Shown in pieces: positions 883 to 59,295 of a stretch of 64,000 nucleotides of DNA (the stretch's first letter is position 1; each line of letters opens with the position of its first letter). Under the pieces are notes generated by a model. The model was not told the origin of the DNA. It worked only from the letters and a program-made list of their open reading frames with translations, and did not search any database. The DNA is from Elusimicrobiota bacterium (GTDB lineage: Bacteria; Elusimicrobiota; Elusimicrobia; UBA1565; UBA9628): the NCBI GenBank assembly GCA_003452935.1, contig DMMY01000005.1, forward strand, positions 57,858 through 121,857, in the 5' to 3' direction. Both the position numbers and the translations under genes were made by a program.

Positions 883-1584
883 TTATCTTTTCAATAAGAT
901 GCGCGCCATGAGAACGGCGTGGCGCCAAAGCTCCCGCGGCGCGTTGAGCTTGGAGGCGCCTTGCCGACGACGGCCGAGTCTGGCCGGGACCTCGGCCACG
1001 GACATTCCCGCGGCCAGGAAGCGCGCCGCGATCTCGGCGTTGATCTCAAAGCCCTCGCTGCGCAGGCGAAGCTTGCGCAGGGCCGCGGCGCGATAGAGGC
1101 GGAAAATCGGGGTGTAGGCCGTGAGCTGCCGGCCGCAAAGGACGCGGTAGAGCGCGTTGATCAACGCGCTCGGCAGGCGGCGGCGCCAGGCCACCTCCGC
1201 CGAACCCTCCGGGGTCAAAAACGGCGAGCCGGCCACGAGGTCGGCTCCGGTCTCGCGCTGGCGCTCGAGCAGGGCCCGGATCTGGGAGGGATGAAAGCTC
1301 ATGTCCGCGTCCAGGGCCACGATCCAGTCTCCCTCGGCCGCGGCAAAGCCGGTGCGCAAAGCCGCGCCCAGGCCGCGGTTGCGGTCGTGGGAAACGGATT
1401 TTATCCCGGGCCGTTCGCCCGCGAGGGTGAGCAGAACGTCCGCGGTCTCGTCCTCCGAGCCGTCGTTGACGACGATCACTTCATGGCGCAGACCCAGCTC
1501 GTCGAGGGCCGGCAGCAGCTTCTCGGCGAAGAGAGACACGGAGCCGGCTTCGTTGCGGCAGGGGATTACGACCGAGAGGAGCAC
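883..1584 (-). CDS. Family 2 glycosyltransferase, polyprenol-phosphate sugar transferase-like (DPM1/ArnC-like)
   Basis: Starts VVIPCRNEAGSV, followed by VIVVNDGSEDET and DADMSFHP (the DXD region); 233 aa with no long C-terminal extension. This is the typical layout of polyprenyl-phosphate glycosyltransferases. Confidence 0.8.
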   Translation of the reverse strand: MLLSVVIPCRNEAGSVSLFAEKLLPALDELGLRHEVIVVNDGSEDETADVLLTLAGERPGIKSVSHDRNRGLGAALRTGFAAAEGDWIVALDADMSFHPSQIRALLERQRETGADLVAGSPFLTPEGSAEVAWRRRLPSALINALYRVLCGRQLTAYTPIFRLYRAAALRKLRLRSEGFEINAEIAARFLAAGMSVAEVPARLGRRRQGASKLNAPRELWRHAVLMARILLKR

Positions 1585-1589
1585 GGACT

Positions 1590-2534
1590 CTACGCCGAGC
1601 GGGCCGCCGACGGCTTGAAAAACTCGATGGTGCGGCGCAGTCCTTCCTCCAGGCTGACCTCGGGTTTCCAGCGCAGCTTGGATTGGGCCACGCGGATATC
1701 GGGCCGGCGCACCTTGGGATCGTCCTCGGGCAGGGGTTTGCGCGCGATGCGGGACTTGGAGTCCGTGAGCTTGATGATGGTGCGGGCGATTTCCAGGATG
1801 GTGAGCTCGTGGGGGTTGCCGATGTTGACCGGGGCGTTGATGTCCGAGTTGAGCAGCAGGCCGATGCCCCGCACAAGGTCAGACACGTAGCACAGGCTGC
1901 GGGTCTGCGAGCCGTTGCCGTAGACGGTCAGGGGCCGGTCCTTGAGCGCTTGGGTGATGAAGTTGGGCACGGCCCGGCCGTCGTTGAGGCGCATGCGCGG
2001 GCCATAGGTGTTGAATATGCGCACGATGCGCACCGGGATGCGGTGGAAGCGGTGGTAGGCCATGGCCATGGCCTCGGCGAAGCGCTTGGCTTCGTCATAG
2101 ACGCCGCGCGGGCCTATGGGATTGACGTTGCCCCAGTAGGTCTCGGGCTGCGGGTTGATTTTCGGGTCGCCGTAGACTTCCGACGTGGAGGCCAGCATGA
2201 AGACCGCCCCCTTGTCCTTGGCCAGGCCCAGGGCCTTATGCGTGCCCAAAGCGCCGACCTTGAGGGTGGGAATGGGGAAGTGGGCGTAATCTATGGGGCT
2301 GGCCGGGCTGGCGAAATGGAGCACCGCGTCGAGCTTGCCCGGGACATGGATGTAGTTGGTCACGTCCGCCTTGATGAAACAGAAGCCCGGATTGGAGAAG
2401 AGGTGGGAGATGTTGTCGAGAGAGCCGGTGAGGAGGTTGTCTATGACGATGACCTGGTGGCCTTGGCCCAGGAAATGGTCGGCCAAATGGCTGCCTAAAA
2501 AGCCCGCCCCCCCCGTGATCAGGATTCGCATCAC
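1590..2534 (-). CDS. UDP-glucuronate decarboxylase (UDP-xylose synthase), NAD-dependent SDR
   Basis: Begins [16 protein letters not shown] (Rossmann fold). Carries [45 protein letters not shown] and [11 protein letters not shown], which are near-identical to the conserved blocks of UXS enzymes. Its stop overlaps the ugd start (2531-2534). Confidence 0.85.
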
Positions 2535-3850
2535 GGCCGACCCACGCTGCAGTAAGTGAAGCCGGCGCCGCGCATTTGCCCGGCGTCGTAGAAGTTCCTG
2601 CCGTCCAGGATGATCGGGTTGCGCAGGACGCGGCGCAGGCGCTTAAGGTCCAGGGACCTGAACTCCTCCCATTCCGTGAGCAGCGCCAGGGCGTCGGAGC
2701 CTTTGGCGCAATCGTAGGGATCGCGGCAGAAAACCACTCCTTTCATGGCCGGCAGGGCCTTGGCGTTGGGCATGGCCACGGGGTCGTAGGCGCGCAAGCG
2801 CACGCCGCGGTCCTTGAGTTGGCGCACGATATCAACGCTGGGGGCGAAGCGCATGTCGTCCGTGTTGGGTTTAAACGCCAAGCCCAGCAAGGCCACGGTC
2901 TTGCCCTCGAGGTTCCATAGGTTTTCCTCGACCTTGCGCATGACCCAGGTCTTGGCGAACTCGTTGATGTCCTTGACGTTCTTCAAGAGCTGGAAGTCGT
3001 AGCCTTTCTGCTTGCTGATCCAATAAAACGCCTCCAGATCCTTGGGGAAGCAGAACCCGCCGAACCCCAGCCCCGGCCGCAGGAACATGTTCCCGATGCG
3101 GTGGTCGAGGCCCATGCCCTTGGCGACCAGGGCCACGTCGGCTCCCACCTTCTCGCAGACCGCGGCCACGGCATTGATATAGGATATCTTGGTGGCCAGG
3201 AAGGAGTTGGAGGCGTGCTTGATGATTTCGGCGCTCTTGACGTCGGTGACGAGGACGGGCGCCTTGATGCCGGCGTAGACCTTTCGCATCAGGGCCTCGG
3301 CTCGCGGCGAGGTCACGCCGAAGACCACGCGGTCGGGCTTGAGAAAATCGTCGACCGCCGTGCCTTCGGCGAGAAATTCGGGATTGGAGACCACGTCGAA
3401 GGGGACCGCGCCCTTGTTGAAGCGGGCTACGGTCTTGCAGACCCATTCTCCCGTCTCCACGGGTACGGTGGACTTGTCCACGAGCACCGTATACTCGCGC
3501 ATGTTCTTGGCCACGGCTTCGGCCACGGCCTCCACGGCCGAGAGGTCCGCCGATCCATCCGCCCGAGGCGGGGTTCCCACGGCGATGAAGACGACCTGGG
3601 CGCGGCGCCCCTTGTGGTTCATTCCCTCAGTGACGGAGCCCACGAAGCAGAGCCGGCCTTCCTTAATGTTGCGGTAAAAGAGCTTGTCCAGTCCGGGCTC
3701 GTAGATGGGAATTTTCTTGGCGCGCAGAGCCTTGAGCTTGCGCGGGTCGGAATCTACGCACACGACATGGTGGCCGAGCTCTGCCAGGCAGGTCCCGGTC
3801 ACTAGACCGACGTAGCCAGCGCCTACTACGCAAATATTGAACTTTTCCAT
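2531..3850 (-). CDS. ugd: UDP-glucose 6-dehydrogenase
   Basis: N-terminal [14 protein letters not shown] (NAD-binding), a catalytic-Cys motif [10 protein letters not shown], and a C-terminal UDP-binding domain; 439 aa. Confidence 0.9.
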
Positions 3851-4102
3851 TGGGAGCTATAGATTTTCTCAAAAAATGACTGGTATTTCAAGCAGAAGAA
3901 GGAGCGCGCGGCGCCTACTGGTAAGGGGCGCCGGATCCGTTGGGGCGGCCGTGTCTTGTTGTCATTGCCCGTTGTAAACCAAAGTTTTTATTGTAAAATC
4001 AAGGAACCATGGAGCTTGGCGCCAAATTCCGCGATGGTTCGGCACGCATGGGCATCCTGGGCATGGGTGATGTGGGTTTATCCCGGGTGGTTCGTCTCTG
4101 AA

Positions 4103-7478: not shown

Positions 7479-10400
7479 CTAGAACTGGAAGGTCAGGGTG
7501 GTTCCGAACTGGTAGGAGATGAAGTCCTCCTCCTTGAGGAAACGGTGCCACAGGCGCGAGGCGGCGCCGTTTAATGTCATGCGCAGGTTCTTGGCGATTT
7601 CATAGTCGCCGCTGGTGGTGAGACTGAAGAGATCCGAGTTGTCGGCCTGGGTGACGGGAGATTTGCGGTGCGCCAGGGAGAGAGTGGTCGTCCAGATGAT
7701 GCGGTTGGTGAACAAGAGGGGTTTTTTGGCTCCCGGCAGCATCAGGCCTCGGGGCAAGGCCACGTCCGTGCGGACCAGGAGGCTCGGGGTCAAAACCGTG
7801 ACATCCTGGGTCTTGATTCCGGTTCCCAACGTGGTCAGGTCGTGGGTGTAGTCGGTCTTCGGCGTCAAGTAGAACTTGCGCAGATTGAAATTGACCTGGG
7901 CCGTGGCGTCCTCGTGGGCCGTGCTCTGCGTATTGGCGTCGACGCGCAGGTCCCGGTTCTTGGACTGGCGGGTGTTGAAGCTCAGCAGGGTATCGAAGCG
8001 CTTGCGTACGATCGTGCGCAGGTCCATGCCCAAGGATTCGTCGGTGGCGATGGAGGAGTTGACGTTTTCCGTCTTGTGCGCCGAGAAACGTACGTTCATC
8101 TGGGTGTTGTTCATCCAGCGCTGAGTGAACCACAGCTGCTCCAGCTGGCTGATGCTGGCGACCAGGTCCGGGAAAGTCGTGGAGAGGGTCTTGGAGAGGG
8201 TCCCGGTCGTGTCCGAGCGCTGGATGCTGCGGACGTAGTTGTTGGAAATGGAGAAGGTCTTGAGCGCCGCGAGGCGGCCCCGGATATCGTAGGCGTCCAG
8301 CGGCGACCAGCGCTGCGTGGAATTGAACGTGTCGCGCACGGTCTGGCTCATGCGTTGGGCCGCTGGATTTTTCGGGCGCAGGGGCGAGCGCACCCAAAGG
8401 CCGGCGTTGGTCTGGTAGCCCCTTTCTATGTTGTTCCAGACGTCGCCGTCCTGGAGTTGATAGCCGGAAACGATGTTGAGGGAACGAAACAGCTTGGCGC
8501 GGGAATATATATCGGAGATGGTCAGGGGCAGGCTGATGGAGCCGTTGGCGGAGCGGTTGACGGTCTTGATGTCTCCGACGCCGAAGACGTAGGTCGAGTT
8601 CTGGACCACGAAGGTGGAGACGTTGAGGATGGAGTTTTCCAGGATGTCGATCTGGTAGTTGACCTGGGGATTGAGCCAGCGCAAGAGCTTGAAATTGGAG
8701 GAGAACCCGGCGGTCTGGCTCATGGACTTCGGATAAGAGAAGTTTTGCTCCACGTCGCCGGTGAAGTCGGAGCGGCGCTCCGTCACCTTGGTGAGGCTGT
8801 AGTTGGGGTTCAAGGAGGAGCCCTCCCAGGGATTGAGGGTCAGGCGCAGGCCCGCGGTCTGGCTGAGCTCCTCGGTGTTGACATTGCCCGGGAGTTTGCG
8901 CGCCGCGGGGGAATCAAACGCCACGATGGTGCGCTGATGGCTGTAGTTGGCGTCGATCGTGCGCGGCAGGACGCGCCAGCTCAGGGGAACGCCGTACTGC
9001 ATGGAACCGGCGTAGGCGATGCGGTCGTCGAGCCTCGTGAGCTGCTCGTATTCGACGCGGTTGCGCGTGTGGGACAGGGTCAGGCGCGGCCAGCTGCCCA
9101 GGGTGAAGTTGCCCTGGGCCGAGCCGTTCCAGGTGGTGACTTTCCCGCCTTGGAGCTGGTTGACCAGGTTGGAGAGGCTTCCGGTCAGGGCCGTGTTCGG
9201 GGTGTCCGTCATGGTGCGGGAGAGGTTGAAGCTCATGGGGAAGAATGCGAGACGCTGGAAGTTGAGGTAGGCGGAGTCGAGCCGGTTGTCCTGATTGGAG
9301 ACGACCGACGTGGGAGTCTGGAAGTTGCGGTCCACGAGCCGGTGCTTGGCTCCGAAGGTGCCCCAGCCCGCGAGCTCGAAGTCCGCGCTGAAGGTCTGGG
9401 CTTGTCCGACGCGCACCACCGGGTCGGCCAGGAAAAGTTCGTCGAGCCATACCCGTCCCTTGCTGACGGCCGCGGCGTTGTCGATTTTCCTGACACCGGC
9501 GACCAGTTGGGCGATCTGCTGCAGGCTGGGAGTTCCGGAGGTGACGATGGCGGCGAAGGCTTGGTCCGTGGACCAGGCTTCCATGACCGAATCCTTGTTG
9601 GTGTCGACTTGGTTGACCACGATCTTGCGCCAGCCCTGGAAATTGAGGGGCACGCGGACCTCGAAGAAATTCAAGTCGTTGCCGGCCCGCAGGAAAAACT
9701 CGTGGTCCGTCAGGTTGCATAGGGACTGGTCGGATTCGCAGCCGGCGTTGCCGTACAACAGGAAATTGAAATGGCGGTGCTGGCTGATGTCGATGGCGCG
9801 GGTGAAGATGCGCTTGGAATAGACCGTGGCCGAGGAGGTCCCCACGTTGGTCATGCTCGAGAAGTCCAGCTGCAGGGATTGCTCGGACAGGTTCTTGGTT
9901 CCGGACTGCCTCTGGAGATTGGAAAGGCTTCCATAAAGGTCGTTGAAAACCTGCGTGGCGTCCCCCCCGGCGTTGTAGATGGGCGCGTAAGTGGGATTGT
10001 CCACGGAGTTGACCGGCACGGCCACGAGGCTTTCCGCCTGTATCTGGCCCTGCGCCAGGGCAGGGTCTCCGGCGGCGCCGCGCAGCCAGGTCGTGCCCAC
10101 GGTGCCGACGCGGGCGATCTTGATGCCTCCCGAGGCCAGCCCGCCCGCGGCGCGGCGTATGGAGAGGCGCAAGTGCTTGATGGTGGTCCAACGGCTCATG
10201 GTGGCGGAGGATATGTTGAGCGGGATCTGGAAGGCCTGCCAGCCGGCGCTGCTGCCCGTCGCCCCCTGGCCGAAATCGAGCCTGGTATGAGTGCCGGAAT
10301 CGAGGCTGTAGAGCTGGTCGGCGGATGAGGACGTGCAGTGCCCGCCCAGGCTGCCCGCGGCGCACATGTAGCCGAAATCCCCGCCGTTGCCGTCGTCCGG

Positions 10401-13064
10401 GTCCAGGCGGCCGTTCTTGTTTAGGTCCACCGAGTCCAGGACTCCGTTGTTGGCGCCGTAGCGCGTGCTGTTGGCCGCGCCCGGCGGAGCGTAGGCGAAA
10501 CCGATGTCCTCGCCCGGCTGGAGGATGGCGTCATTGTTGGCGTCCTCGGTGCGCAGCAGGCCGGAGCCGTCCGCGTTCTCGTCGATGCCGCCCAGACGGA
10601 AGTTGATGAGGTTGTTGGAGTTGTCGCCCAGCATGACCACTTCCAGGACCGTCTTCTGCGAGAAGTCCAGGCCCGAGATGGAGAAGGGGAACGCGATGGA
10701 AACCTCTTGCGTGGAATTGGCGACGGAGGCGAAATCGTAGTTGATGTCGAGGACCTTCTGGGTCTCGTTGGAGCCGGCTTGGGCGCGCGGATTGATATCC
10801 AATACGCGGACATCCTCGTTGAACCAGTTGACGCTCGGGCTGCCGGAAGGGCCGGGGTCCGCGGGGGGCCGGCTGGGGTTGGAGGCGATCTGCCATTGCT
10901 GGTACATGATGCCCGCCGCGTCGTCTTGCCGGATGCCCTCCATGTTGTCGACGATGGCGAAATCGTTGAGGTTGAGGTTTTGCCGGCTCTGGGCGAACTC
11001 CCCGGCGAAGCTGGCCTTGAGCCGGGGCAGGAGGCGGATGTCCTTGAGCTTGAGGTCGAAGTCGTAGACCATGAGGCTGCGGGCCAGTTCGGTGATGTTG
11101 GGGACGGTCTGGGACTTGGCTCCGGCCTGGTAGAGCAGGGTCGAGCCCACGGAAACGTGCTTGTTTAGGTCGTAGGAGACCCGCGAGCCCAGCAGGGACT
11201 CATTCGAGATGCCGCCGAACGGGGAGACCTCGTAGCTGATGTCGATCTGGGATTGGGGATGGACCCGGTCGGGGTTGAAGAAGGTGATGAAGCCCGACTC
11301 GTAGTCTATGAAGTAATCCACGTTGCGGTTGAGCTTGACGTTATCGAGCAGGACCACCTCGCTTTGGACCACGATGGAGGGTTCCAGGAAGAAGGTCCGC
11401 AGACGGAAGCTGTATTCCACGTGGATGAGGCGTTTGGAGATGGGGGTGGGGGAGTAGAGGTCCGGATCCGGCGTGGCGGAGTCTCCTACGACGGCGAACG
11501 GCCTCTCCAGCCGGAAAGTCCCGTTTTCGAAGTCCACGGTGATGTTGTCCGGATATTTTTGAGCCGGGTTTAAGCTGGAGCCGGTCTCCCGGCGCTGCTG
11601 ATCGAGCACCTGGAGGATGAAGTTTCCGTGGCCGTCGTCGCGCACGATCTGGGGCTGGCCGATGTTGTAGACGGTCTTGAGCTCGCGGCTGAAGCCCAAT
11701 TCCTGGCTGCAGGTCGTGCAGGAGGTCAGATCGGACCGGATAGGGACGTCCGAGGGGGTCTTGATGAGCTTGAGGCGGCCCGTCCCGCCCGCCGCGTTCG
11801 TGCTGGTCTGGACCGACAGGCTGCGGCCGAGAGCGTCGGCGTACTCGATGGCCACCGCCCATTGCGGCTGCAGGGCGTTGCGGAACGAGATGATGCCCTT
11901 GACGTAGTCGATGGTGTAGTCCGTGCCGGCCGAGAGCTGGAAGAATTTCCCGGTGAAGGTGGCCGTGGCCAGGGCGATGTCGTCGACCGTCATCTCTATC
12001 TCGTTGACGTTGGCCTGGCCGAGATTTTGCTGGGCCAGGAATATCCTCTCGGTTCCGGACTGGATGGGCAGGCGCGCGACGTCGGACCCGAAGCTGATGT
12101 CATAGTGCTGCCGGCGGACATAGGATGTGTCGAGGATGTCGACGGCCTGGAACTGGGTGTTGCCCACGAACTGCTTGTACTTCGTGGTGCCCTTGGTGCG
12201 GCTGCCGATGAACGAGGCCTTGAGGCCGTTCCACTTGACGTCGGCGCGGATGCCGAAGAGCTGCTTGTTGTACGAGACGAACTCCGTGGGCGGCAGCGAG
12301 AGGTCTATGTCGCCGAAGGACACGTTCTGGACCACCTCGTTGGCGTAGCCTTGGTAGACGATGGAGATGTCCTGCTGGTTGGTCTTGGTGTCGTCGTAGT
12401 CCACGTTGACGGTGATCTTGGGCCCCACCTTGCCCTGCATGCGCAGCTGAAGCTCCTGCTGGATGTCGAAGAGGTTGGTCGAGGCCGGGCGGCCGGTCTT
12501 GGCCTGGTCGTTAAGAAAGCGCTTCTCCGAGAACTGGAATCCGATGATCTTGCGGCCCGTGATCGAGAGGCTCATTTGCTGGCCGGGCAGTTCCAGCTCC
12601 GGAGGCGGCGGCCTGAGGACGGGCGCCTCCGAGGCGGCGAGCTCCTCGATCTCGAGCTCCTCGCGGGGCGAGCGCTCGCGCGGGGCGCGGCCTTGCTCGA
12701 TGTTGCGGCGGGCGCGCAGGAAGCGCTCCGGGGAATAGGACATGGGCTTGAGGCCGCGCACGAAGTCCAAAAAATCGCCCGGGGTCTGGCCCGCGGGCTC
12801 CGGCTCCTCGACGGGTTCGAGGATATGGGCCGGATCCGGGCGGTCGATGAGCAAAAACGGGCCGGCGGCGGGGATGACGGCGGCGGGCGGGCCGCCGGCT
12901 TCGGGGGCGGGAGCCTCGGCCTGGGGCTTGGACGCTTGCGGCTGCTGGGCGAAATCCGGGTCGTAAGGCGTGGAGAATTGGGCTTGCGCCGCTTCACGCG
13001 CTGGCGCAAGCGACGATAACAAGGCGACCAAGCCCCATAGGCGCAGAAATCGAAGTCGCTGCAA
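7479..13064 (-). CDS. Giant (1861 aa) outer-membrane beta-barrel protein, SprA-like (type IX secretion translocon) candidate
   Basis: Single uninterrupted 5.6 kb ORF with a TTG start. It has an N-terminal signal peptide (MQRLRFLRLWGLVALLSSLAPAREAAQA). Composition is Asn/Gln/Ser/Thr/Gly/Tyr-rich with alternating hydrophobic patterning throughout. The C-terminus ends ...GTTLTFQF, an aromatic terminal residue typical of outer-membrane barrels. The size class and the T9SS context at the window end suggest SprA; this is not proven. Confidence 0.6.
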   Translation of the reverse strand: MQRLRFLRLWGLVALLSSLAPAREAAQAQFSTPYDPDFAQQPQASKPQAEAPAPEAGGPPAAVIPAAGPFLLIDRPDPAHILEPVEEPEPAGQTPGDFLDFVRGLKPMSYSPERFLRARRNIEQGRAPRERSPREELEIEELAASEAPVLRPPPPELELPGQQMSLSITGRKIIGFQFSEKRFLNDQAKTGRPASTNLFDIQQELQLRMQGKVGPKITVNVDYDDTKTNQQDISIVYQGYANEVVQNVSFGDIDLSLPPTEFVSYNKQLFGIRADVKWNGLKASFIGSRTKGTTKYKQFVGNTQFQAVDILDTSYVRRQHYDISFGSDVARLPIQSGTERIFLAQQNLGQANVNEIEMTVDDIALATATFTGKFFQLSAGTDYTIDYVKGIISFRNALQPQWAVAIEYADALGRSLSVQTSTNAAGGTGRLKLIKTPSDVPIRSDLTSCTTCSQELGFSRELKTVYNIGQPQIVRDDGHGNFILQVLDQQRRETGSSLNPAQKYPDNITVDFENGTFRLERPFAVVGDSATPDPDLYSPTPISKRLIHVEYSFRLRTFFLEPSIVVQSEVVLLDNVKLNRNVDYFIDYESGFITFFNPDRVHPQSQIDISYEVSPFGGISNESLLGSRVSYDLNKHVSVGSTLLYQAGAKSQTVPNITELARSLMVYDFDLKLKDIRLLPRLKASFAGEFAQSRQNLNLNDFAIVDNMEGIRQDDAAGIMYQQWQIASNPSRPPADPGPSGSPSVNWFNEDVRVLDINPRAQAGSNETQKVLDINYDFASVANSTQEVSIAFPFSISGLDFSQKTVLEVVMLGDNSNNLINFRLGGIDENADGSGLLRTEDANNDAILQPGEDIGFAYAPPGAANSTRYGANNGVLDSVDLNKNGRLDPDDGNGGDFGYMCAAGSLGGHCTSSSADQLYSLDSGTHTRLDFGQGATGSSAGWQAFQIPLNISSATMSRWTTIKHLRLSIRRAAGGLASGGIKIARVGTVGTTWLRGAAGDPALAQGQIQAESLVAVPVNSVDNPTYAPIYNAGGDATQVFNDLYGSLSNLQRQSGTKNLSEQSLQLDFSSMTNVGTSSATVYSKRIFTRAIDISQHRHFNFLLYGNAGCESDQSLCNLTDHEFFLRAGNDLNFFEVRVPLNFQGWRKIVVNQVDTNKDSVMEAWSTDQAFAAIVTSGTPSLQQIAQLVAGVRKIDNAAAVSKGRVWLDELFLADPVVRVGQAQTFSADFELAGWGTFGAKHRLVDRNFQTPTSVVSNQDNRLDSAYLNFQRLAFFPMSFNLSRTMTDTPNTALTGSLSNLVNQLQGGKVTTWNGSAQGNFTLGSWPRLTLSHTRNRVEYEQLTRLDDRIAYAGSMQYGVPLSWRVLPRTIDANYSHQRTIVAFDSPAARKLPGNVNTEELSQTAGLRLTLNPWEGSSLNPNYSLTKVTERRSDFTGDVEQNFSYPKSMSQTAGFSSNFKLLRWLNPQVNYQIDILENSILNVSTFVVQNSTYVFGVGDIKTVNRSANGSISLPLTISDIYSRAKLFRSLNIVSGYQLQDGDVWNNIERGYQTNAGLWVRSPLRPKNPAAQRMSQTVRDTFNSTQRWSPLDAYDIRGRLAALKTFSISNNYVRSIQRSDTTGTLSKTLSTTFPDLVASISQLEQLWFTQRWMNNTQMNVRFSAHKTENVNSSIATDESLGMDLRTIVRKRFDTLLSFNTRQSKNRDLRVDANTQSTAHEDATAQVNFNLRKFYLTPKTDYTHDLTTLGTGIKTQDVTVLTPSLLVRTDVALPRGLMLPGAKKPLLFTNRIIWTTTLSLAHRKSPVTQADNSDLFSLTTSGDYEIAKNLRMTLNGAASRLWHRFLKEEDFISYQFGTTLTFQF

Positions 13065-14385: not shown

Positions 14386-15513
14386 TCATTTTCCGAAAAA
14401 ATCCTTCACGGCCCGGCAGACGAGATCCACCTCGGACGGCTCCAGCTCCGGGTACATGGGCAAGGCCAGGGCGGTTCGCGCCGCTTCCTCGGTCCTCGGC
14501 AGGCCGCGGGCCGCAAGACCCTGGTAGGCGGGCTGCTGGTGGATGGGGATGGGGTAATAGACGGCGTTGCCGATCCCCCGCTCGGTGAGATGCCTGGCCA
14601 GCTCGTCTCTTCGATCGCAGCGGATGACGAAGAGATGGAAGGAGTGGCGGCTGCCGCCCTGGCCGAGGTCCGGAAGGCGCAAGGGCAGTCCCGCAAGGCC
14701 CTCGATGTAGCGCGCCGCGGCCTGCCTGCGTCCCTCGGTCCATTTGGTCAAGTGCTTGAGCTTCACCCGGAGGACGGCGGCCTGGAGTTCGTCGAGGCGG
14801 CAGTTCTGCCCCACCCGGGCGTGGCGATAGGCGGGTCCGCCGGTGACCCGGCCGCAGTTGCGCAGCTGCCGGCAGGATTCCGCCAGAGCGTCGTCCTGGG
14901 CCGTGACCGCGCCGGCGTCGCCGACCGCGCCCAGGTTCTTGGAGGGATAGAAGCTGAAGGCGCCCGCGTCCGCGATGGCGCCGACCGTGCGGCCCTTGTA
15001 GGAGGTCAGGTGGGCCTGGGCGCAGTCCTCAACCACCTTCAGGCCTTTCTCGCGGGCCAGGGCGAGCAGGCCGTCCATATCCGCCGGCTGTCCGAAAAGA
15101 TGGACGGGCAAGATGGCCTTGGCGCGAGGGGTGACGGCTTGGGCCGCGTCCGCGGCGGCCATGGTCATGGTGTCCGGGTCGATGTCGACGAACACGGGCT
15201 TGGCGCCCAAGGCCGAGACCGCGGTGGCCGTGGCGATGAAGGTGAAGGAGGGCACGAGCACCTCGTCTTGCGGGCCCACGCCCACGGCTTCCAGGGCGAT
15301 GCGCAGGGCGTCCGTGCCGTTGGAAACCCCCACGGCGTGGCGCGAACCCAAGGCCGCGGCGAACTCGGTTTCGAACTGCCTGACCTCGGGGCCCAGGATA
15401 AAGGCGCCCGAGTCCAGGGCCCGCACCAAGGCTTGGCGCATATCGGCGCCGATGCGTTCATGCTGTTTCTTGAGGCTCAACAAGGGAATCTGAGTCTGCG
15501 TGGTCGGTTTCAA
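14386..15513 (-). CDS. DegT/DnrJ/EryC1/StrS-family PLP-dependent sugar aminotransferase
   Basis: Conserved blocks LLSLKKQHERIGADMRQALVRALDSGAFILGPEV, GVSNGTDALRIALEAVGVG and a PLP-lysine region FSFYPSKNLGA. The track ORF extends to 15585, but a TTG at about 15513 preceded by AAGGGGG is the likelier start and removes the overlap with the upstream gene. Confidence 0.85.
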   Translation of the reverse strand: MKPTTQTQIPLLSLKKQHERIGADMRQALVRALDSGAFILGPEVRQFETEFAAALGSRHAVGVSNGTDALRIALEAVGVGPQDEVLVPSFTFIATATAVSALGAKPVFVDIDPDTMTMAAADAAQAVTPRAKAILPVHLFGQPADMDGLLALAREKGLKVVEDCAQAHLTSYKGRTVGAIADAGAFSFYPSKNLGAVGDAGAVTAQDDALAESCRQLRNCGRVTGGPAYRHARVGQNCRLDELQAAVLRVKLKHLTKWTEGRRQAAARYIEGLAGLPLRLPDLGQGGSRHSFHLFVIRCDRRDELARHLTERGIGNAVYYPIPIHQQPAYQGLAARGLPRTEEAARTALALPMYPELEPSEVDLVCRAVKDFFGK

Positions 15514-16976
15514 TAAGCCCCCTTGGCCATGAGCATGGCCGGGACGGTCTTTAGGATTATTTCCAGGTCCAGGCCCAGGGACCAATGCTCGATGTAGAAC
15601 ATGTCCAGAGCGAAGCGCTGCTCGCTGGACACGTCCGAGCGTCCCGAGACCTGCCAGAGCCCGGTGATGCCGGGCAGGATGTTCATGCGCTTCTTTGCGG
15701 TTTCCCCGAATTCCCTGAGCAATTCCTCCATTTCTCCCGTGGTCACGGCCAAGGGCCGCGGGCCGACCACGCTCATCTCGCCCCTGAAAACGTTGATGAA
15801 CTGCGGAAACTCATCGAGGGAGAAGCGCCGCAGCCAGCGGCCGACCCGGGTGACGCGCGGGTCGTCCTTGGCCTTGAAGAACGCGCCTTGGTGGTTGTTG
15901 AGGGTTTTGACCGCTTTTATCCGGGATTCGGCGTCTACCACCATGGTCCTGAATTTGTAGGCATGGAATATCCGGCCCTTATAGCCGAACCTCTTTTGCT
16001 TGTAGAGGGCGGGTCCCTTGGAGTCCAGACGGATGAGCAGCGCGGCGAGCAGCCAGGGCAGGCCGGCGGCCAGGAAGACGAGAAGACAGAACGAAATATC
16101 AAAGGCCCGCTTGGCCATGAAATTGACCCTGGTCATGGAGCCGTGCTGGATGCGGTAGGCGGGCAGGCCCAGGCTGTGATCCATCTGGATCTCTCCCAGG
16201 CGCAGCTCCAGAAGATCCGGCAGCATCTTGAACGATATGCCCTGGGAATCGCAGATCTCGGCCGCGGCCAGGATGCGCTCATGCGCGAGCGCGGATTTAA
16301 AAAGGATCATCTCGTAGAAGGGTTGCCCGGCCAGCAGGCGCTTGAGGTCTTGGTCCGGGGGCAGATCGCGCAGCTCATGGATAACCGCCTCGGGGTGGCG
16401 CAGCCGGATCCGGTCCTTGACCACCTGGGCCACGGCGCCGCCGCCGATAAGCAGGACCGGGCGCGCGTTCTCATGCCGGGAGACCCAATCATCCACCCAC
16501 AAGACCACGGCCTGGCTCAAGGAGACCAGGATCACGGATATGGGCAGGACCAAGATCAGCATCATGCGGGAATACTCGAGCCGGGAATAAATATAAGTCG
16601 TCGCCATGGTGGCGACGGTGGCCAGAAGGCAGCCTTTGACGATCTTGAGGAAGCGGTCCGCGCCGCTTATCCAGGGGTTGCTGTAAAGCCGGGAGGAATA
16701 CCAGAAAATCATCAGCCACAAAGGCACCGCGACATAGAGCATGTTGCGGTACAGGTCCCAGTCCGGGGTGAGGCCAGGGATGGGAAAAGCCGAGACCCAT
16801 CTTTCCGAGCGGAAGCGCCACAGGTAGGCTAAGGCGTAAGAGGAACTCACGGCCGAGGCGTCGAAGGCGAGGTGCAGGAACGTGCGCAGGCCGTGGCGCA
16901 GCCAAAGAGGGAAAGCCGGCTTAAATGGTTTGTGGCTCGACTGGATGCGCTCGGTACCCGGCGCGAGAGTGGCCAT
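15510..16976 (-). CDS. Polyprenyl-phosphate sugar phosphotransferase (WbaP/bacterial sugar transferase family), the pathway-initiating enzyme
   Basis: N-terminal multi-TM region plus the C-terminal catalytic domain KRAFDISFCLLVFLAAGLPWLL...SLDEFPQFINVFRGEMSVVGPRP...PGITGLWQVSGRSD, which is diagnostic of the PF02397 family. Confidence 0.9.
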   Translation of the reverse strand: MATLAPGTERIQSSHKPFKPAFPLWLRHGLRTFLHLAFDASAVSSSYALAYLWRFRSERWVSAFPIPGLTPDWDLYRNMLYVAVPLWLMIFWYSSRLYSNPWISGADRFLKIVKGCLLATVATMATTYIYSRLEYSRMMLILVLPISVILVSLSQAVVLWVDDWVSRHENARPVLLIGGGAVAQVVKDRIRLRHPEAVIHELRDLPPDQDLKRLLAGQPFYEMILFKSALAHERILAAAEICDSQGISFKMLPDLLELRLGEIQMDHSLGLPAYRIQHGSMTRVNFMAKRAFDISFCLLVFLAAGLPWLLAALLIRLDSKGPALYKQKRFGYKGRIFHAYKFRTMVVDAESRIKAVKTLNNHQGAFFKAKDDPRVTRVGRWLRRFSLDEFPQFINVFRGEMSVVGPRPLAVTTGEMEELLREFGETAKKRMNILPGITGLWQVSGRSDVSSEQRFALDMFYIEHWSLGLDLEIILKTVPAMLMAKGAY

Positions 16977-16990: not shown

Positions 16991-19366
16991 TCAATTTTGC
17001 GCATACAGCTTTTCCAGGGCGCCGAGGGCCTGGGCCGGGGTGAATTCCAGGAGGATACGTTCCCGGCCCGCTTGCCCGAGCTTTCGGCGCAGGGAGGCGT
17101 CGTGGGCCAGGCGCAGGGCGGCCCGCAAAAGAGAAGCTTCATCGCGAGCCAGCAGCCCCGTGACATCCGGGATGACGGCGTCCTGGTTGCCCGGCGCGTC
17201 CGAGGCCACGACCGGCAGTCCCAGGGCCATGGCCTCCAGGACCGCGTTGGGCAAACCCTCCCAGCGGGAGTAATGGACCAGGATGTCGAGCTCGCGCATC
17301 TTCTCCAAGGCCTGTTCTGGCTTGAGCCAGCCGGTGATTTCCAGATTTCCTTGGAGGCCGCGCTCATGCGCGAGGCGCCGGATGTCTTCTTCCTGCTCGC
17401 CGCCGCCGATCCAGATAAAGCGCGCATCCGGCCGCGCCCGGCGCAGCCCGGCCGCCAGCCTGACGAAAGCCTCGGGATTTCGGGCCGCGGTCAGGCGGCC
17501 GCACGCGCCGAGCGCGAGGCCCTCATGGGGCAGCGGAGGCGGCGGCTCGGCGGGGCCGAGGTAGGGATCGCAGACCGTGTGTACGGGGTTTCCCCAGTTC
17601 AGGGAGCGGGCGAGTCTCGCCTCGCTCGGCGAGACCGCGACGATCTCTCCTATCCAGGACACGGACCATTCCGCGGCGCGGTAGAGCAGGCGGGAGGCCG
17701 GGCTCCGGTCCGTCTGGAGAAATGAATAGCCGTGGGGAGAGTAGAACACCCGCGGCGCCCCTGTAAGCCAAGCGGCCAGCCGGGCCAGGACTCCGGCCTT
17801 GGATGAGTGCGCGTGGACCGCGTCCGGGGCTTCCCGGCGCATGATGGAGCATAGCCGGACGAATGCTTTTAGGTCTCGCCCAAGGGAAATCTCCCGGACC
17901 ATGTCGGGCACGTGATAAGCGGTCTTGGCGCCGGGAACTTGGCCGCGGTATTGCTCCGGGTCTTCGCCGGGCCGGACCGCGTAGACCAGGACCGCGTCGA
18001 AGCGCCGGGGGTCGAGGCCGTTGCAGATGGCGGCCACCTGGTTGCCCGTGCCTCCGGGACCGCCGCACTCCAAGACTTCCAAGACCTTGGTTCGGCCTCC
18101 TTTTAAATTCGGACGCCGCGGCCCCAGGCTGGCGGCGAAAGGAAATAGGAGCGGGAGGTAGAGGATTTTATGCCGCGTGGCGCTGCCCAGGTCGAATTCC
18201 AGCAGCGCCGAACCCGCGGCCATGACCGCGAAAAGGCTCAAGAGAAGCCATCGCGCTATTGTTTTTGGCCCGCGCCAAGCCCCGAGCAAGCCGGCCAAGG
18301 CGAGGATCAGGAGCACGGAGTTCTCCAGGGCCGCCAACACGCGTCCGAGGTTTCCGTCCATGGCATAGAGGCCGGGCAGGGGCATGAAGAGGACGTAGAA
18401 AACCCCTTTGGGCAGAAACGCGAGAACATCCCACCAATTGTTGAATTCCAAATCAACGAAGAGCTGCGTGCCGATCTCGCGGCCGGCGTTGTCCTTGGCC
18501 CATATCCGGTCCGAAAGCTGGCGGACGCGCCGCGTTTCCGAGAGATTGCGCGGGCTGTAGGGCGCGACATACCGGTCGAGACTGGGACTGTAGGTGGGGG
18601 GCATGATGGCATGGATCACGGCCGGGTCCGGCACATCCGAGGGGGGCGGCTTGAGGCAATCAGTGAAGATCACGCGGCTTAGGTGCAGGTAAAGCACGGG
18701 GGCGCCTGCCACGAGCGCGGCCGTTGCCAGAACCTTTCCCCAGGGCAGGCCCCGGCGCAAGCGTCTGGCTGTTTCAGCGCATAAGCCGGCGGCCAGGACG
18801 CAGGCCGTGGTCGCGGCCAAATAGCTGCGCAGAAACCCGACTCCCACCAGGGCTCCTACAGCGGCCAGACCATCAGCCGGCCGGATGGGATTGTCGCGAA
18901 AAATCCTCAGGACGAAGGCCAGCGCCGCATAGGCCAGGAGCAGTATCCAGGAGTCCTTGAAGTTCTGGGACGTAAAGAAGATGTGCGAAGGCCATAAGGA
19001 GAGGCATAGGGCGCTTATGGCGGCGGGCCCCGCTCCAAATAAAGGAGCGCTGAATTTAAAGAAAACGACGATGACCAGGGCGCCGAAAAAGGAGTTGAGG
19101 ATCTTGGTCAGGAGCGGGTGGAAGCCGAAGGCTCTGTAGCAGCAGGCCAGCAGGAAGGCATGAGTGCGCTGTGACGGGTGGCGCGCCGAGAGATATTCCT
19201 CGCCCCGTTGCCAGGAGGAAACCATGTCCCGGGCCGTTTCCTCCATGAGCCGGGCATCGGTGTAGTAGTGGGCGGGGAAAACAGGCTTGACCTCGCTGAC
19301 CAATGCAAAGCCGACGCGCAGGCTCAGGGCCAGCAGGAACAGGAGGCGCGCCGGGGACTTGGTCAT
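16991..19366 (-). CDS. Fusion protein: N-terminal ~420-aa polytopic membrane domain (paralog of 28064..29404) plus a C-terminal GT4 glycosyltransferase
   Basis: The N-terminal half is hydrophobic multi-TM, ends in the motif FDLGSATRH and aligns with the standalone protein at 28064..29404 (VDLGSATRH). The C-terminal half has GT4 hallmarks: KVLEVLECGGPGGTGNQ, HAHSSKAG and EGLPNAVLEAMALGLPVVASD. Confidence 0.7.
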   Translation of the reverse strand: MTKSPARLLFLLALSLRVGFALVSEVKPVFPAHYYTDARLMEETARDMVSSWQRGEEYLSARHPSQRTHAFLLACCYRAFGFHPLLTKILNSFFGALVIVVFFKFSAPLFGAGPAAISALCLSLWPSHIFFTSQNFKDSWILLLAYAALAFVLRIFRDNPIRPADGLAAVGALVGVGFLRSYLAATTACVLAAGLCAETARRLRRGLPWGKVLATAALVAGAPVLYLHLSRVIFTDCLKPPPSDVPDPAVIHAIMPPTYSPSLDRYVAPYSPRNLSETRRVRQLSDRIWAKDNAGREIGTQLFVDLEFNNWWDVLAFLPKGVFYVLFMPLPGLYAMDGNLGRVLAALENSVLLILALAGLLGAWRGPKTIARWLLLSLFAVMAAGSALLEFDLGSATRHKILYLPLLFPFAASLGPRRPNLKGGRTKVLEVLECGGPGGTGNQVAAICNGLDPRRFDAVLVYAVRPGEDPEQYRGQVPGAKTAYHVPDMVREISLGRDLKAFVRLCSIMRREAPDAVHAHSSKAGVLARLAAWLTGAPRVFYSPHGYSFLQTDRSPASRLLYRAAEWSVSWIGEIVAVSPSEARLARSLNWGNPVHTVCDPYLGPAEPPPPLPHEGLALGACGRLTAARNPEAFVRLAAGLRRARPDARFIWIGGGEQEEDIRRLAHERGLQGNLEITGWLKPEQALEKMRELDILVHYSRWEGLPNAVLEAMALGLPVVASDAPGNQDAVIPDVTGLLARDEASLLRAALRLAHDASLRRKLGQAGRERILLEFTPAQALGALEKLYAQN

Positions 19367-20556
19367 GTCTGCGCCTCTGCCTTGACCCAGATGATGATAA
19401 GGAAGGTGGCGACCAGTTCATTCTGGAAGGATATTTCCGTCAGGTTCATGACCAGGAACGCGGCCATGGTCCCCAAAGCCCATAGATTCCAAGCGTTGGG
19501 CAGAGCCCTGACCCTTTGCCAGGCCCTTGCCAGCATGGCCGCGAACAAAGCCAGAAGCGCGGCCAGACCCAGCAGGCCTCTTTCCGCCAACTGGTGCAGA
19601 TACAGACTATGGGCCGAGCCCCACACGCGTTGGGTGGCGATCTCTCCGGAAAAATAGCGCGGAAACACCGTGCGGTAATTTCCCGGCCCCACGCCCAAGA
19701 CCGGGTGGTCGCGAAACGCGCGCCACGCCACGTCCCAGAGCGCAAGCCGGTCGAGTTGGGGGTTGGAGCCGGGTTTGGCTACGGTGGCGCCGAAATCGCG
19801 CAGGGAGCCCAGCAAGGATCTGTGTGTGGGCAGAAGCTCCAAGGCGACTGCGCCCAGCATGGCGGCCAAGAGGGCCCATTTGATCCAGCGGCGCAGTTCG
19901 CGGTCCGCGGCGCAGAGCGTCAGAAACCCGATGAACAAGGCCAGGAAAGCGGCCCGGGTTTGGTTGAGGATGAAGGCCAAAGTCCCGATCCCCAAAAAAA
20001 CGAGCAATTCCCTTTGCCGAGGCTGATTCTGGCCGGGACGCAGGAGAAAGCAGAGCGCCCCCAACAAGGCCAGGGCCAGCATGTCGCCGTAGGTCACCGG
20101 GTGCATGAACCCGGAGGCGCGGATCCAGAACCAGCCGTTGGCCGCGCTTTTCACCACGGACTGCGCGGCGCCGTAGCCCGCGACGGCGGTAAAGCCCAGG
20201 ACCAGGGCCGCGGCCGCCGGGGCTTCGGGCGCGCAGACGCAGGCGAGCAAAAGAGCGTAGAAGACGCCGATCTTGTGCAGTTCCTTGGGCAGGATGCGCA
20301 GGCTTTCCGCGGGCGCGACCCCGAGCGCGCCGGTCAAGGCGCACACGGCGACGTATATCCAAAGGCAGAGGGCGGCGGCTCCCCATGTCCTGCGCCAGGG
20401 CAGGCGGCCCGCGCTTAGGGCATGCCACATCAGCCCCGCGCACACCAGCCCCAGGGCTATATTGGTCCCGGCGATGGAAAAGGGCAGGGCCAGGCAGAGC
20501 GCCGTTACGGAGGCGGCCATGAGGCCCTTAGGGGACAACGGGATCTTATGCATCCC
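19363..20556 (-). CDS. O-antigen ligase/polymerase-like (Wzy_C-type) polytopic membrane protein
   Basis: ~10-12 predicted TM segments with a central loop region (LNQTRAAFLALFIGFL...) typical of Wzy/WaaL family proteins. The track ORF starts at 20634; an internal MHKIPL start at about 20556 is preferred because it only marginally overlaps the upstream gene. Confidence 0.65.
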   Translation of the reverse strand, partial: GMHKIPLSPKGLMAASVTALCLALPFSIAGTNIALGLVCAGLMWHALSAGRLPWRRTWGAAALCLWIYVAVCALTGALGVAPAESLRILPKELHKIGVFYALLLACVCAPEAPAAAALVLGFTAVAGYGAAQSVVKSAANGWFWIRASGFMHPVTYGDMLALALLGALCFLLRPGQNQPRQRELLVFLGIGTLAFILNQTRAAFLALFIGFLTLCAADRELRRWIKWALLAAMLGAVALELLPTHRSLLGSLRDFGATVAKPGSNPQLDRLALWDVAWRAFRDHPVLGVGPGNYRTVFPRYFSGEIATQRVWGSAHSLYLHQLAERGLLGLAALLALFAAMLARAWQRVRALPNAWNLWALGTMAAFLVMNLTEISFQNELVATFLIIIWVKAEAQT

Positions 20557-22630: not shown

Positions 22631-22678
22631 CCGGAATTATAACAAAAGCAGCCGAGCGTATTTTTTCCGTTTGGTATA

Positions 22679-24265
22679 ATGGTCGTCTCGAAATCCTTTA
22701 TGCTTATTGACTCGCGGCCTTGCCGGGCATGGCTCTTGGCCGCGGCCTTGATCGCGGCCGTGCTCGGGGCTTGGCTTGCCTTTCCTCCGACGGGTTTTTA
22801 CCAGGACGATTGGTTCACCATGGAGGACTCCGCGCGCGGCCGCACTCTGCTCGACGCCGTGCATGCCTTCGCCGCCCGCGGCTGGAACTGGCGGCGGCCC
22901 GCGCAGATCGTGCTCATGCCTCTGGCTCATAGAGCGGCTCTTAATCGGCCGGCCGTAGCCGCCGGCATCCTCGCGTTTCTCGTGGCCCTCGAGGCGTTGC
23001 TCCTTTATGGACTGGTGCGTCGCATGACCGGAAGAGCCGCAACGGCGTTGGCGGTTACGGGGTTCGTGCTTCTTTATCCGGGTAGGCCGTCTTTTCAGAT
23101 GTGGTTCGCCGACATACTGCAGACCACGGCTCAGCCTCTCGTGCTCGGGGGGCTCTGGCTTTATAGGGATTGGGTCGAGTCACGCCGGCCCGCCAGGCTG
23201 TTCCTGGCCCTGGGCCTTTATCTTGCCGGAGCATCATGTTATGAGGCCGCTTTTTTTCTGCCCCTGATACTTTTGGCTGATCCGGCCATTCTTCCAGGCG
23301 CTGGGCCCTGGCGGATGCGGCTGCGCCGCGTGGCCGCCCGGACCTGGCCTCTGGCCTTGGCCATGGCAGCGGCCGTTCTCTGGAATCAGGTGATTCTCGC
23401 GTGGATTACTTCAACGGCGCTGAGGCCCCCGAGTTGGTCCCTGGGTCTGGCGTTGAAAGGCTTGGGGGCCGGTTTTGAATGCGTCAGTTCGCGCGTCCTG
23501 CATGAGTGCCTGCGGTCCGTGGGCCCGGCCTTGCGGGGATTCTCGGCCGGGCATTGGCTCTTGGCCGCGGCCTTGGCGATTTTTTTCGCCTGGGCGCTGG
23601 AGTCCGCTTTGCGCCGCGAAGCCGAGGCTCTTCCCACGACCTGGTGGGTCGGCACGGCCGCCGCCTTCTTAGGGGCTTACCTGCCCTACGCTTTCTCAGG
23701 AGGCTACCAGCCGACCATGCACGGCATCATGAGCCGGACCAACGGCGCGGGCGCCTGGGTTTTCGGCATGCTGGCCGCGGGCATCCTGGCTTCCTGGCCC
23801 GCGTCATGGTCCCGGTTTCGGCCTTGGTGCTTGGGTCTGGCGGCCATGCTGCTTCTGCCGGCCAATTGGACGCAGCGGCAGGATTGGGCGAGAGCCTGGA
23901 GGGAACAGCAAAGGATACTCGACGATATCCGGATTCAAGCCAAGGATATTCCCGGCCCGGCCACGATCGTCCTTTCCTCATCGCTCTATGTCGGCGATGT
24001 GGTCGTGTTTGACGCTCCCTATGATTTCGATTCAGCCCTGCATTTGGCCATCAACCGCAAGGATTTGACCGGAGCCATCGATTCGTGGCGGTTTCGATTT
24101 CGCCCGGATCGAGCCTTGGAGGCGCCAGGGGGACAGTTCGTCAGAGAATATAGTTACGATCGGATGTTCCTTTATGATCCTCAAACGCGCGAGCTGCTCA
24201 GGGTCTCTGGGCCGCCGGATGCCCGTTGGGCCAAAGAACATCCGGCGCGCCTGATCCAGCTCTGA
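22679..24265 (+). CDS. GT-C-fold-like polytopic membrane protein (paralog of 20546..22630)
   Basis: 528 aa, multi-TM, with an early loop motif FYQDDWFTMED. The likely start is the internal M at about 22700, because an extended -10-like TGGTATAAT overlaps the 22679 ATG. First gene of a 4-gene plus-strand operon. Confidence 0.5.
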   Translation: MVVSKSFMLIDSRPCRAWLLAAALIAAVLGAWLAFPPTGFYQDDWFTMEDSARGRTLLDAVHAFAARGWNWRRPAQIVLMPLAHRAALNRPAVAAGILAFLVALEALLLYGLVRRMTGRAATALAVTGFVLLYPGRPSFQMWFADILQTTAQPLVLGGLWLYRDWVESRRPARLFLALGLYLAGASCYEAAFFLPLILLADPAILPGAGPWRMRLRRVAARTWPLALAMAAAVLWNQVILAWITSTALRPPSWSLGLALKGLGAGFECVSSRVLHECLRSVGPALRGFSAGHWLLAAALAIFFAWALESALRREAEALPTTWWVGTAAAFLGAYLPYAFSGGYQPTMHGIMSRTNGAGAWVFGMLAAGILASWPASWSRFRPWCLGLAAMLLLPANWTQRQDWARAWREQQRILDDIRIQAKDIPGPATIVLSSSLYVGDVVVFDAPYDFDSALHLAINRKDLTGAIDSWRFRFRPDRALEAPGGQFVREYSYDRMFLYDPQTRELLRVSGPPDARWAKEHPARLIQL

Positions 24266-24315
24266 TTTTTCCAGGTGCGGCCGTCAAGTCTCCAGAGTTG
24301 GTATGATATCGCAGG

Positions 24316-37576: not shown

Positions 37577-37625
37577 GCTCGGCGCCAAGCCGCATGCTCG
37601 AAGATCAGGATTGCGCAGGGTCGAG

Positions 37626-37663
37626 TTATCCCCAAACATATCCCGGGATATGTTTGGGGATAA
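37626..37663. repeat. 38-bp perfect palindrome (19-bp inverted repeat, no spacer): TTATCCCCAAACATATCCC|GGGATATGTTTGGGGATAA
   Basis: Read directly from the sequence; the right arm is the exact reverse complement of the left arm. It lies just upstream of the preferred start of the rSAM gene, at the edge of a ~400-bp low-GC spacer (37676-38074). Confidence 0.8.
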
Positions 37664-55501: not shown

Positions 55502-55502
55502 G

Positions 55503-59277: not shown

Positions 59278-59295
59278 TTGCAATAATTATATTTC

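Follow-up and report, generated by a model that had tools for sequence, protein, structure and literature searches.

Lipid-linked monosaccharide donors set which sugars bacteria can add outside the cytoplasm, whether to lipopolysaccharide, to wall polymers or to proteins. To our knowledge, the sugars known to be carried in this way are glucose, N-acetylglucosamine (GlcNAc), mannose, galacturonic acid (GalA), galactosamine (GalN), 4-amino-4-deoxy-L-arabinose (Ara4N) and the ribo-, arabino- and xylofuranose (Ribf, Araf and Xylf) derived from phosphoribosyl pyrophosphate (PRPP). A dolichyl-phosphate xylosyltransferase activity (EC 2.4.2.32) was reportedly found in hen oviduct in the 1970s, and we know of no gene that has been assigned to it. 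In the Arn (Pmr) pathway, UDP-glucose is converted to UDP-glucuronate (UDP-GlcA) by Ugd, a short-chain dehydrogenase/reductase (SDR) carries out an oxidative decarboxylation at C-6, and an ArnC-type family 2 glycosyltransferase (GT2) loads the pentose onto undecaprenyl phosphate (Und-P). Gtr-type three-component systems (GtrA/GtrB/GtrC; CsbB/GtcA/YfhO) combine a polyprenyl-phosphate glycosyltransferase (PPGT) that makes an Und-P-sugar, a flippase, and extracytoplasmic transfer by a GT-C enzyme. Here we analyze a 64,000-nucleotide stretch of DNA from an Elusimicrobia bacterium of a groundwater metagenome (contig DMMY01000005.1; hereafter the window), which carries on its minus strand an operon encoding Ugd, a UDP-xylose synthase (UXS) and a GT2. 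On the basis of sequence comparison and a predicted fold, we propose, with a probability of roughly 0.45, that this GT2 is a polyprenyl-phosphate-xylose synthase that uses UDP-xylose as its donor.

In the mechanism that we envisage, Ugd and then UXS would supply UDP-xylose from UDP-glucose, and the GT2 would move xylose from UDP-xylose onto undecaprenyl phosphate to give polyprenyl-phosphate-xylopyranose. By analogy with Arn and Gtr, a flippase step would then bring this product to the outer face of the inner membrane, where a GT-C enzyme would use it in the periplasm. A first-pass annotation, made from the sequence alone, had suggested a donor pathway of this kind and had remarked that bacterial lipid-linked xylose donors are rarely described. 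The remark needs qualifying, as the pentofuranose system of Citrobacter youngae O1/O2 (undP-Ribf/undP-Xylf) provides a lipid-linked xylose donor for an extracytoplasmic GT-C: in C. youngae O2, undP-Xylf is made from PRPP via undP-ribofuranose and a 3-epimerase and is used by a GT-C of family GT136 (Kelly et al. 2024, PMC11127046). This sugar is a xylofuranose, however, and neither UDP-xylose nor a GT2 PPGT is involved in its synthesis; the same is true of the route to methylthioxylose in M. tuberculosis, a donor mentioned in the same paper (PMC11127046). In full-text searches of the literature, we found no description of a polyprenyl-phosphate xylose derived from UDP-xylose, only that of the PRPP-derived undP-Xylf. 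In its logic, the Elusimicrobia module appears by analogy to be closest to Gtr-type three-component glycosylation, to which it would add a dedicated nucleotide-sugar branch. Its GT2 has the GtrB fold and GT-C genes lie in the same window, but the components are unclustered here, no small flippase accompanies them, and the predicted sugar is a pentopyranose that would come from a two-enzyme branch in the same operon.

Ugd, UXS and GT2 as operon partners

The genes of the module encode Ugd, a UDP-glucose 6-dehydrogenase of 439 residues (2531-3850), a UXS-type UDP-glucuronate decarboxylase of 314 residues (1590-2534) and a GT2 of the PPGT family of 233 residues (883-1584), and are followed by a fourth minus-strand gene for a 124-residue HExxH protein of the Zincin_1 family (504-878; PF06262, Pfam E = 2e-19). 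These had been read at first as three co-directional, overlapping genes. Their coordinates and strand stand, but the only overlap among the three is that between Ugd and UXS, whose stop and start codons share 4 nt (GTGATG), while 5 nt separate UXS from GT2 and 4 nt separate GT2 from the zincin gene. The locus is therefore a four-gene operon rather than a set of three overlapping genes, and the spacing of its members suggests that they are translationally coupled.

Ugd carries all three UDPG_MGDP_dh domains of Pfam as well as the catalytic cysteine motif GFGGxCxPKD. It scored 515 bits against the model of the UDP-glucose dehydrogenase TuaD and also exceeded the cut-off of the NDP-sugar dehydrogenase subfamily, and its top 20 matches in the PDB were all UDP-glucose dehydrogenases or members of that family (406-236 bits), compared to 177 bits for GDP-mannose dehydrogenase, in agreement with the identity that it had been given in the first-pass annotation. 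UXS is 54% identical to human UXS1 over 306 residues (354 bits, E = 4e-105), while the next SDR family, the epimerases, reached 125 bits and ArnA 81 bits. The GxxGxxG, ASTSEVYG (T-S-E) and YDExKR (YxxxK) motifs and the RIFNTxGPRM loop of UXS align column for column with human UXS1, and all of the motifs originally quoted for the two enzymes are present in the 439- and 314-residue translations. Against the U4kpxs model, which describes UDP-4-keto-pentose/UDP-xylose synthases of the Ralstonia type, UXS scored 78 bits (cut-off 294), and against the ArnA model 84 bits (cut-off 777); it has no formyltransferase domain. Homologues of UXS encoded on plasmids are 54-58% identical to it and carry the PGAP name 'UDP-glucuronic acid decarboxylase family protein'. 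These comparisons bear out the earlier assignment of the decarboxylase to the UXS type rather than to the ArnA type. Taken together, the strong homology of both enzymes indicates that Ugd and UXS convert UDP-glucose to UDP-glucuronate and then to UDP-xylose; being of the UXS type, the decarboxylase is expected to carry its 4-keto intermediate through reduction to xylose.

In the way it works, the module resembles the first steps of the Arn pathway, but it does not belong to that pathway: none of the Arn-specific components tested (ArnA, ArnB, ArnC at the equivalog level, ArnT and ArnE/F) was recognized. In addition to the UXS-type decarboxylase, which differs from ArnA in its score (354 versus 81 bits) and in the missing formyltransferase domain, the window lacks an ArnB equivalog, a deformylase, an ArnT equivalog and an ArnE/F-like small membrane protein, and the GT2 of the module is without the two transmembrane (TM) helices of ArnC, to which it is similar at the family level only (77 bits against the ArnC model, cut-off 529). 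Two DegT aminotransferases are encoded in the window outside the module (14386-15585 and 38994-40130). The two scores obtained against the ArnB model (cut-off 631) were 336 and 232 bits, and those for PseC were of much the same size. The statement in the first-pass annotation that there is no transamination is therefore true of the module and not of the window.

GT2 matches PF00535 (E = 2e-31), and its best sequence matches in the PDB are ArnC (E = 3e-18), Pyrococcus DPMS (3e-16) and GtrB (1e-13). An AlphaFold 2 model of GT2 was built on 72 homologues (pLDDT 94.3, pTM 0.92) and compared to the PDB using Foldseek. This revealed that the top 25 chains were all ArnC, DPMS or GtrB, with TMq values of 0.66-0.83, and that the best superposition was obtained with DPMS (5mlz; TMq 0.83, root mean square deviation (rmsd) 2.4 A), while ordinary GT2s reached TMq values of at most 0.67 with an rmsd of mostly 4.5-7 A. 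The alignments spanned approximately 230 of the 233 residues, including both helices of the C-terminal half. The scores of GT2 against the AglJ and PpgS models were, like that against the ArnC model, far under the cut-off. Sequence matches and predicted fold together make a solid case that GT2 belongs to the PPGT family, as its earlier description as DPM1/ArnC-like had implied, and that it represents a subfamily outside the ArnC, AglJ and PpgS models.

To map the active site, descriptions of ArnC, GtrB and DPMS (bioRxiv 10.1101/2025.01.29.634835; PMC12698845) were transferred to GT2 via HMMER alignments, and conservation was judged in the 72-sequence family alignment or, for one residue, also in a smaller set of 12 sequences. 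In the DADLQ(D/N/H) motif of these enzymes, the first Asp is the proposed base and the second Asp binds the metal together with the Gln (bioRxiv 10.1101/2025.01.29.634835). Both DXD aspartates of GT2, D92 and D94 (D92-A-D94), are invariant in the family. The residues that contact UDP in ArnC, D48, N77, R205, S210 and K211, correspond to D41, N69, R206, S211 and K212 of GT2; these are conserved (N69 in all of the 12 sequences and in under 90% of the 72), as is the R-x-x-G-x-S-K motif. The acceptor-phosphate ligand R137 of ArnC, or R131 of DPMS, corresponds to R135, which is at least 90% conserved, and S135 of DPMS, mutation of which lowers activity, corresponds to the invariant S139. Two of the three acceptor-phosphate ligands are kept in GT2.

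Gene neighbourhoods in Elusimicrobia and Binatia

The neighbourhood of GT2 was compared across 15 orthologue contexts in which the upstream sequence could be read, to which contigs L172-L174, which come from the window's own organism, did not add a separate count; a metagenome scan had returned 7 close GT2 orthologues among 80 loci. UXS lies directly upstream of GT2 in 13 of the 15 contexts (the window, L001-L006 and L087-L092), three of the 13 being contigs from the organism of the window itself, and the UXS-linked GT2 is 54-64% identical across diverged metagenome-assembled genomes (MAGs). All of the contexts that hold the triad include Ugd. The gene downstream of GT2 depends on the sub-lineage: it encodes Zincin_1 in the group of the window (L001, L002, L095 and L096) and a 466-residue GltD-like NAD(P)/FAD flavoprotein in another (L003 8721-10118, L005 8738-10138, L087 7767-9167 and L089 10803-12212), which could act on a nucleotide sugar or on a lipid-linked sugar. 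As this partner varies, the constant core is Ugd-UXS-GT2. Of the two contexts in which UXS is not adjacent, one (L093) encodes a divergent GT2 that is 44-54% identical to all others, has altered motifs and lies amid chemotaxis genes, and is probably a paralogue; the other (L094) is taken up below. Comparative genomics therefore lends good support to a functional coupling of UXS and GT2, as predicted from sequence.

Three further features of these loci were recorded. A conserved 106-residue protein with a single TM helix is encoded after the GltD-like flavoprotein, of which the window has no homologue. In the L089 contig, and there only, a gene for a soluble 399-residue protein without a Pfam or NCBIfam match (8815-10014) is inserted between UXS and GT2 and overlaps the start of GT2. 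In several relatives, a second, divergent nucleotide-sugar dehydrogenase of 431-442 residues, 26-30% identical to Ugd, is encoded between the histidine kinase and Ugd (L003 4333-5628, L005 4363-5658, L088 6277-7572 and L094 7269-8597); the window has none.

A profile scan of genome contigs with the GT2 alignment returned, among the matches listed, only distant PPGTs of at most 45% identity and no Elusimicrobia orthologues. Of the 80 loci among these matches, which encode distant PPGTs of other phyla, 1 has UXS as a neighbour, and the link between UXS and GT2 is therefore clade-specific. Through that one locus, we reached MAGs of Binatia/Acidoferrales in which an ArnC-like GT2, Ugd, UXS and a GalE-family epimerase form an operon (L017 8001-12166, L170 8001-12172 and L171 8001-12191) that is kept in four contigs with GT2 identities of 66-100% and is set among tricarboxylic acid cycle genes and lepA. 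The Binatia GT2 has 317-342 residues, scores 217 bits against the ArnC model, matching positions 7-314 of 316 and thus the TM-helix region as well, and is 36% identical to the GT2 of the window; the Binatia UXS is 64% identical to its counterpart in the window. Both operons join a PPGT to Ugd and UXS, but the Binatia one does so with another PPGT subfamily, in another gene order and with an additional 4-epimerase, so that its final sugar may be L-arabinose. The Binatia operon may serve to make Und-P-L-arabinose or Und-P-xylose by a pathway whose origin is separate from that in Elusimicrobia. The strongest argument at present for a pentose donor derived from UDP-xylose is that two different PPGT subfamilies have each come to share an operon with Ugd and UXS. 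No annotated PPGT-type GT2 was found beside UXS in three sampled plasmid contexts of cultured bacteria (Streptomyces, Deinococcus and Azospirillum), where the UXS genes lie in ordinary polysaccharide or natural-product clusters.

The epimerase of the Binatia operon raises the question of whether the donor of the Elusimicrobia GT2 might instead be UDP-L-arabinose, made from UDP-xylose by a 4-epimerase encoded elsewhere, which would give polyprenyl-phosphate-L-arabinopyranose and so follow the logic of Ara4N without the amine. ArnC handles a pentose of arabinose configuration, the UDP-xylose 4-epimerase of Sinorhizobium belongs to the GalE family, and the Binatia epimerase that directly follows UXS is a clear GalE-family member (452 bits, cut-off 262). 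In the 64-kb window, however, no epimerase of GalE level was found, the SDRs at 33426 and 44058 scoring 63 and 83 bits against the same cut-off of 262, and the other Elusimicrobia loci have none beside their triads. Among the alternatives considered here, we regard UDP-L-arabinose as the least probable.

Donor and acceptor of GT2

Several observations weigh against the reading of GT2 as a polyprenyl-phosphate-xylose synthase. The first of these concern the active site and the membrane. The metal-binding Gln of the DADLQ motif is Ser in the GT2 of the window (DADMSF) and Thr in most orthologues (DADLTF), and the Arg of the G-S/T-R motif (R117 of DPMS, R128 of ArnC) is replaced by a Pro (GSP) that is invariant in the 72 sequences; R128 binds the acceptor phosphate in ArnC, and R117 has this role in DPMS. 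In addition, no TM helix or hydrophobic segment was found in the 233 residues of GT2. All three features would suit an enzyme that is not a lipid-phosphate glycosyltransferase at all but a soluble xylosyltransferase, with a small molecule, a protein or a growing glycan as its acceptor. We consider this very unlikely, as the whole of GT2 superposes on ArnC, DPMS and GtrB with the next-best folds clearly worse, and as conservation extends to R135, S139 and the R-x-x-G-x-S-K motif; moreover, PPGT family members without TM helices exist, such as human DPM1 and mycobacterial Ppm1. Two cationic helices of the GT2 model, comprising residues 133-150 (net charge +4) and 215-232 (net charge +3; strongly amphipathic, with a hydrophobic moment of 0.60), probably match the juxtamembrane helices of PPGTs, and might keep GT2 attached to the surface of the membrane.

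A second group of observations concerns the sugar. Donor specificity is not readable from sequence, and GT2 could be a polyprenyl-phosphate hexose or N-acetylhexosamine synthase for mannose, glucose or GlcNAc, like DPM1, GtrB or CsbB, which shares the operon only as an envelope-sugar gene while UDP-xylose goes to cytoplasmic glycosyltransferases. The JGI annotation of its homologues is dolichol-phosphate mannosyltransferase, and the structure on which GT2 superposes best is that of DPMS (5mlz; TMq 0.83, rmsd 2.4 A), whose R131 and S135 it retains as R135 and S139. Pyrococcus DPMS uses GDP-mannose and differs from the GT2 family in R117, where the latter has its invariant Pro, and in DADLQH, which corresponds to DADM(L)S(T)F. 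Relatives with the motifs specific to this family (DxDLT, GSP and GFEINAE) are also encoded without UXS, in a bacterium of the candidate phyla radiation (L007) and in L093. Furthermore, the genes for an unrelated histidine kinase and for ComF are conserved beside the triad as well, and the synteny may therefore partly reflect shared ancestry. What argues against a hexose donor is the gene spacing, with the translational coupling that it suggests, the position of UXS immediately upstream in 13 of 15 contexts whereas the downstream partner varies, and the independent PPGT-Ugd-UXS operon of Binatia amid housekeeping genes. We therefore regard a hexose or N-acetylhexosamine donor as unlikely, although it is the most credible of the alternatives to UDP-xylose; if the donor were a common hexose, the finding would shrink to an ordinary sugar-nucleotide operon.

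The L094 contig bears on the donor more directly. The GT2 of this contig shares 70% identity with the UXS-linked protein of L091, is nested in the clade and is encoded directly after Ugd. No UXS was found within 10 kb upstream of it, and the contig ends 470 nt past GT2. L094 is thus a real counter-example to the linkage of UXS and GT2. An orthologous GT2 that follows Ugd without UXS would be expected if the enzyme made polyprenyl-phosphate-glucuronate from the product of Ugd, with UXS as a side branch for other glycans, and the presence of Ugd in every triad context fits this equally. On the other hand, UXS sits between Ugd and GT2 in 13 of 15 contexts and would compete for the same pool of UDP-GlcA, and the nucleotide-sugar 4-epimerase that the Binatia operon adds after UXS points to a pentose end product, which makes a glucuronate donor quite unlikely. 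Of the donor pathway suggested in the first-pass annotation, the functional link between UXS and GT2 is upheld by their tight packing, the 13 of 15 contexts and the Binatia operon, while L094 keeps UDP-xylose from being established as the donor.

The remaining observations concern the later steps of a polyprenyl-phosphate-xylose pathway. In the other genomes examined, the 8-10 kb around the triad contained no GT-C gene. The window contains no candidate for a small flippase of the GtrA or ArnE/F type, as none of its open reading frames of 60-260 codons encodes two or more hydrophobic segments.

In its most specific form, which we put forward tentatively and as somewhat short of an even bet, our proposal is that GT2 is the first polyprenyl-phosphate D-xylopyranose synthase to be assigned a gene and provides a lipid-linked pentopyranose donor, fed by UDP-xylose, for xylosylation by GT-C enzymes in the periplasm, and that Binatia have converged on the same solution, possibly with L-arabinopyranose, by means of an ArnC-like enzyme. 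If so, three-component glycosylation would extend to neutral pentopyranoses, one more donor and one more enzyme specificity would join those already known, and the activity reportedly classified as EC 2.4.2.32 would gain a sequence. It would also offer a way to approach envelope glycosylation genetically in the uncultured Elusimicrobia and Binatia phyla, and a compact PPGT without TM helices that may be useful for glycoengineering.

The glycan island and other features of the window

Seven consecutive polytopic membrane proteins are encoded on the two strands at 16991-29404 and form an unusually dense GT-C array. The first, of 791 residues (16991-19366, minus strand), is a fusion of an N-terminal GT-C half of the PMT_2 family (31.9 bits, cut-off 26.1; approximately 10 hydrophobic segments) and a C-terminal GT4 half. 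Two possible GT-Cs without a Pfam or NCBIfam match, of 694 residues (20546-22630, minus strand; approximately 10 hydrophobic segments) and 528 residues (22679-24265, plus strand), are 28% identical to each other over 200 residues. Two PMT_2 GT-Cs come next on the plus strand, one of 728 residues (24316-26502; 37.8 bits, cut-off 26.1) and one of 522 residues (26499-28067; 44.9 bits) that is 27% identical to it; neither has a sequence match in the PDB by phmmer. A protein of 446 residues (28064-29404, plus strand; approximately 12 hydrophobic segments) is a paralogue of the GT-C half of the 791-residue fusion (36% identity over 423 residues, E = 7e-52), and the remaining member of the array is a Wzy_C/O-antigen-ligase protein. 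The NCBIfam library includes a model for ArnT; at E<=1e-5, no NCBIfam match was obtained for the GT-C proteins or for the membrane proteins of 694, 528 and 446 residues.

The array is separated from the module by the genes for the histidine kinase, ComF and a protein of 1861 residues. The first-pass annotation had placed many ArnT-like GT-C enzymes 15-25 kb away and had cast them as the users of the lipid-linked sugar. The array is real, but lies at 13-25.5 kb, and three of its members pass the PMT_2 cut-off, none with an NCBIfam match and the two that are not fused to a GT4 without a PDB match. As users of the product, these enzymes are possible candidates that nothing ties specifically to the module, and this part of the earlier proposal is not established, given that the other genomes examined have no GT-C gene so close to the triad. 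The surrounding glycan island carries genes for a phosphoglycosyl transferase, GT4s, two MOP flippases, the DegT aminotransferases, NeuB, CMP-transferases and four radical-SAM enzymes. The radical-SAM genes, three for B12-binding enzymes and one for a SPASM enzyme, lie on the minus strand (36053-37675, 40143-41690, 47385-48404 and 48468-49976) in a sugar cluster that also encodes NeuB (54452-55558), two CMP-sugar cytidylyltransferases, a PseB-like dehydratase and DegT. This combination suggests that the product is a nonulosonic acid or a sugar like it that undergoes extensive modification, possibly including C-methylation.

At the upstream end of the operon, a promoter-like site on the minus strand (3863-3891; TTGAAA-17-GAAAAT, TG-extended) lies 12 nt 5' of the start codon of Ugd, a position compatible with the start of the operon, from which the histidine kinase gene at 3956 diverges. 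The site is a consensus match only, and two such sites in the region, against 1.1 expected from shuffled sequences, are not statistically significant. At the opposite end, 7 nt past the stop codon of the zincin gene as measured in L172, we noted a sequence resembling the T-arm of a tRNA, GGCACCGGTTCGAATCCTGTCACTGA, on the minus strand of the window (approximately 470-500) and at 11088-11113 of L172. A tRNA gene was rejected, as ARAGORN and Rfam find none there; the sequence may be the remnant attachment site of an integrated island. Beyond it, the parent contig contains an HTH_17 excisionase-like gene and then a type I restriction-modification system.

The 1861-residue protein (7479-13064, minus strand) has no Pfam match, and its position is kept in related MAGs (1942 residues in L001, 1847 in L172). 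It terminates in Phe, as outer-membrane beta-barrel proteins do. Towards the far end of the window, at 58001-62000, the GC content falls from approximately 0.64 to 0.50-0.53. This dip coincides with a response regulator gene (59296-59997) and the start of the gene for a 1268-residue NHL/fn3/TIG protein (60084-63890), the C-terminus of which is a Por_Secre_tail of the type IX secretion system (T9SS) type.

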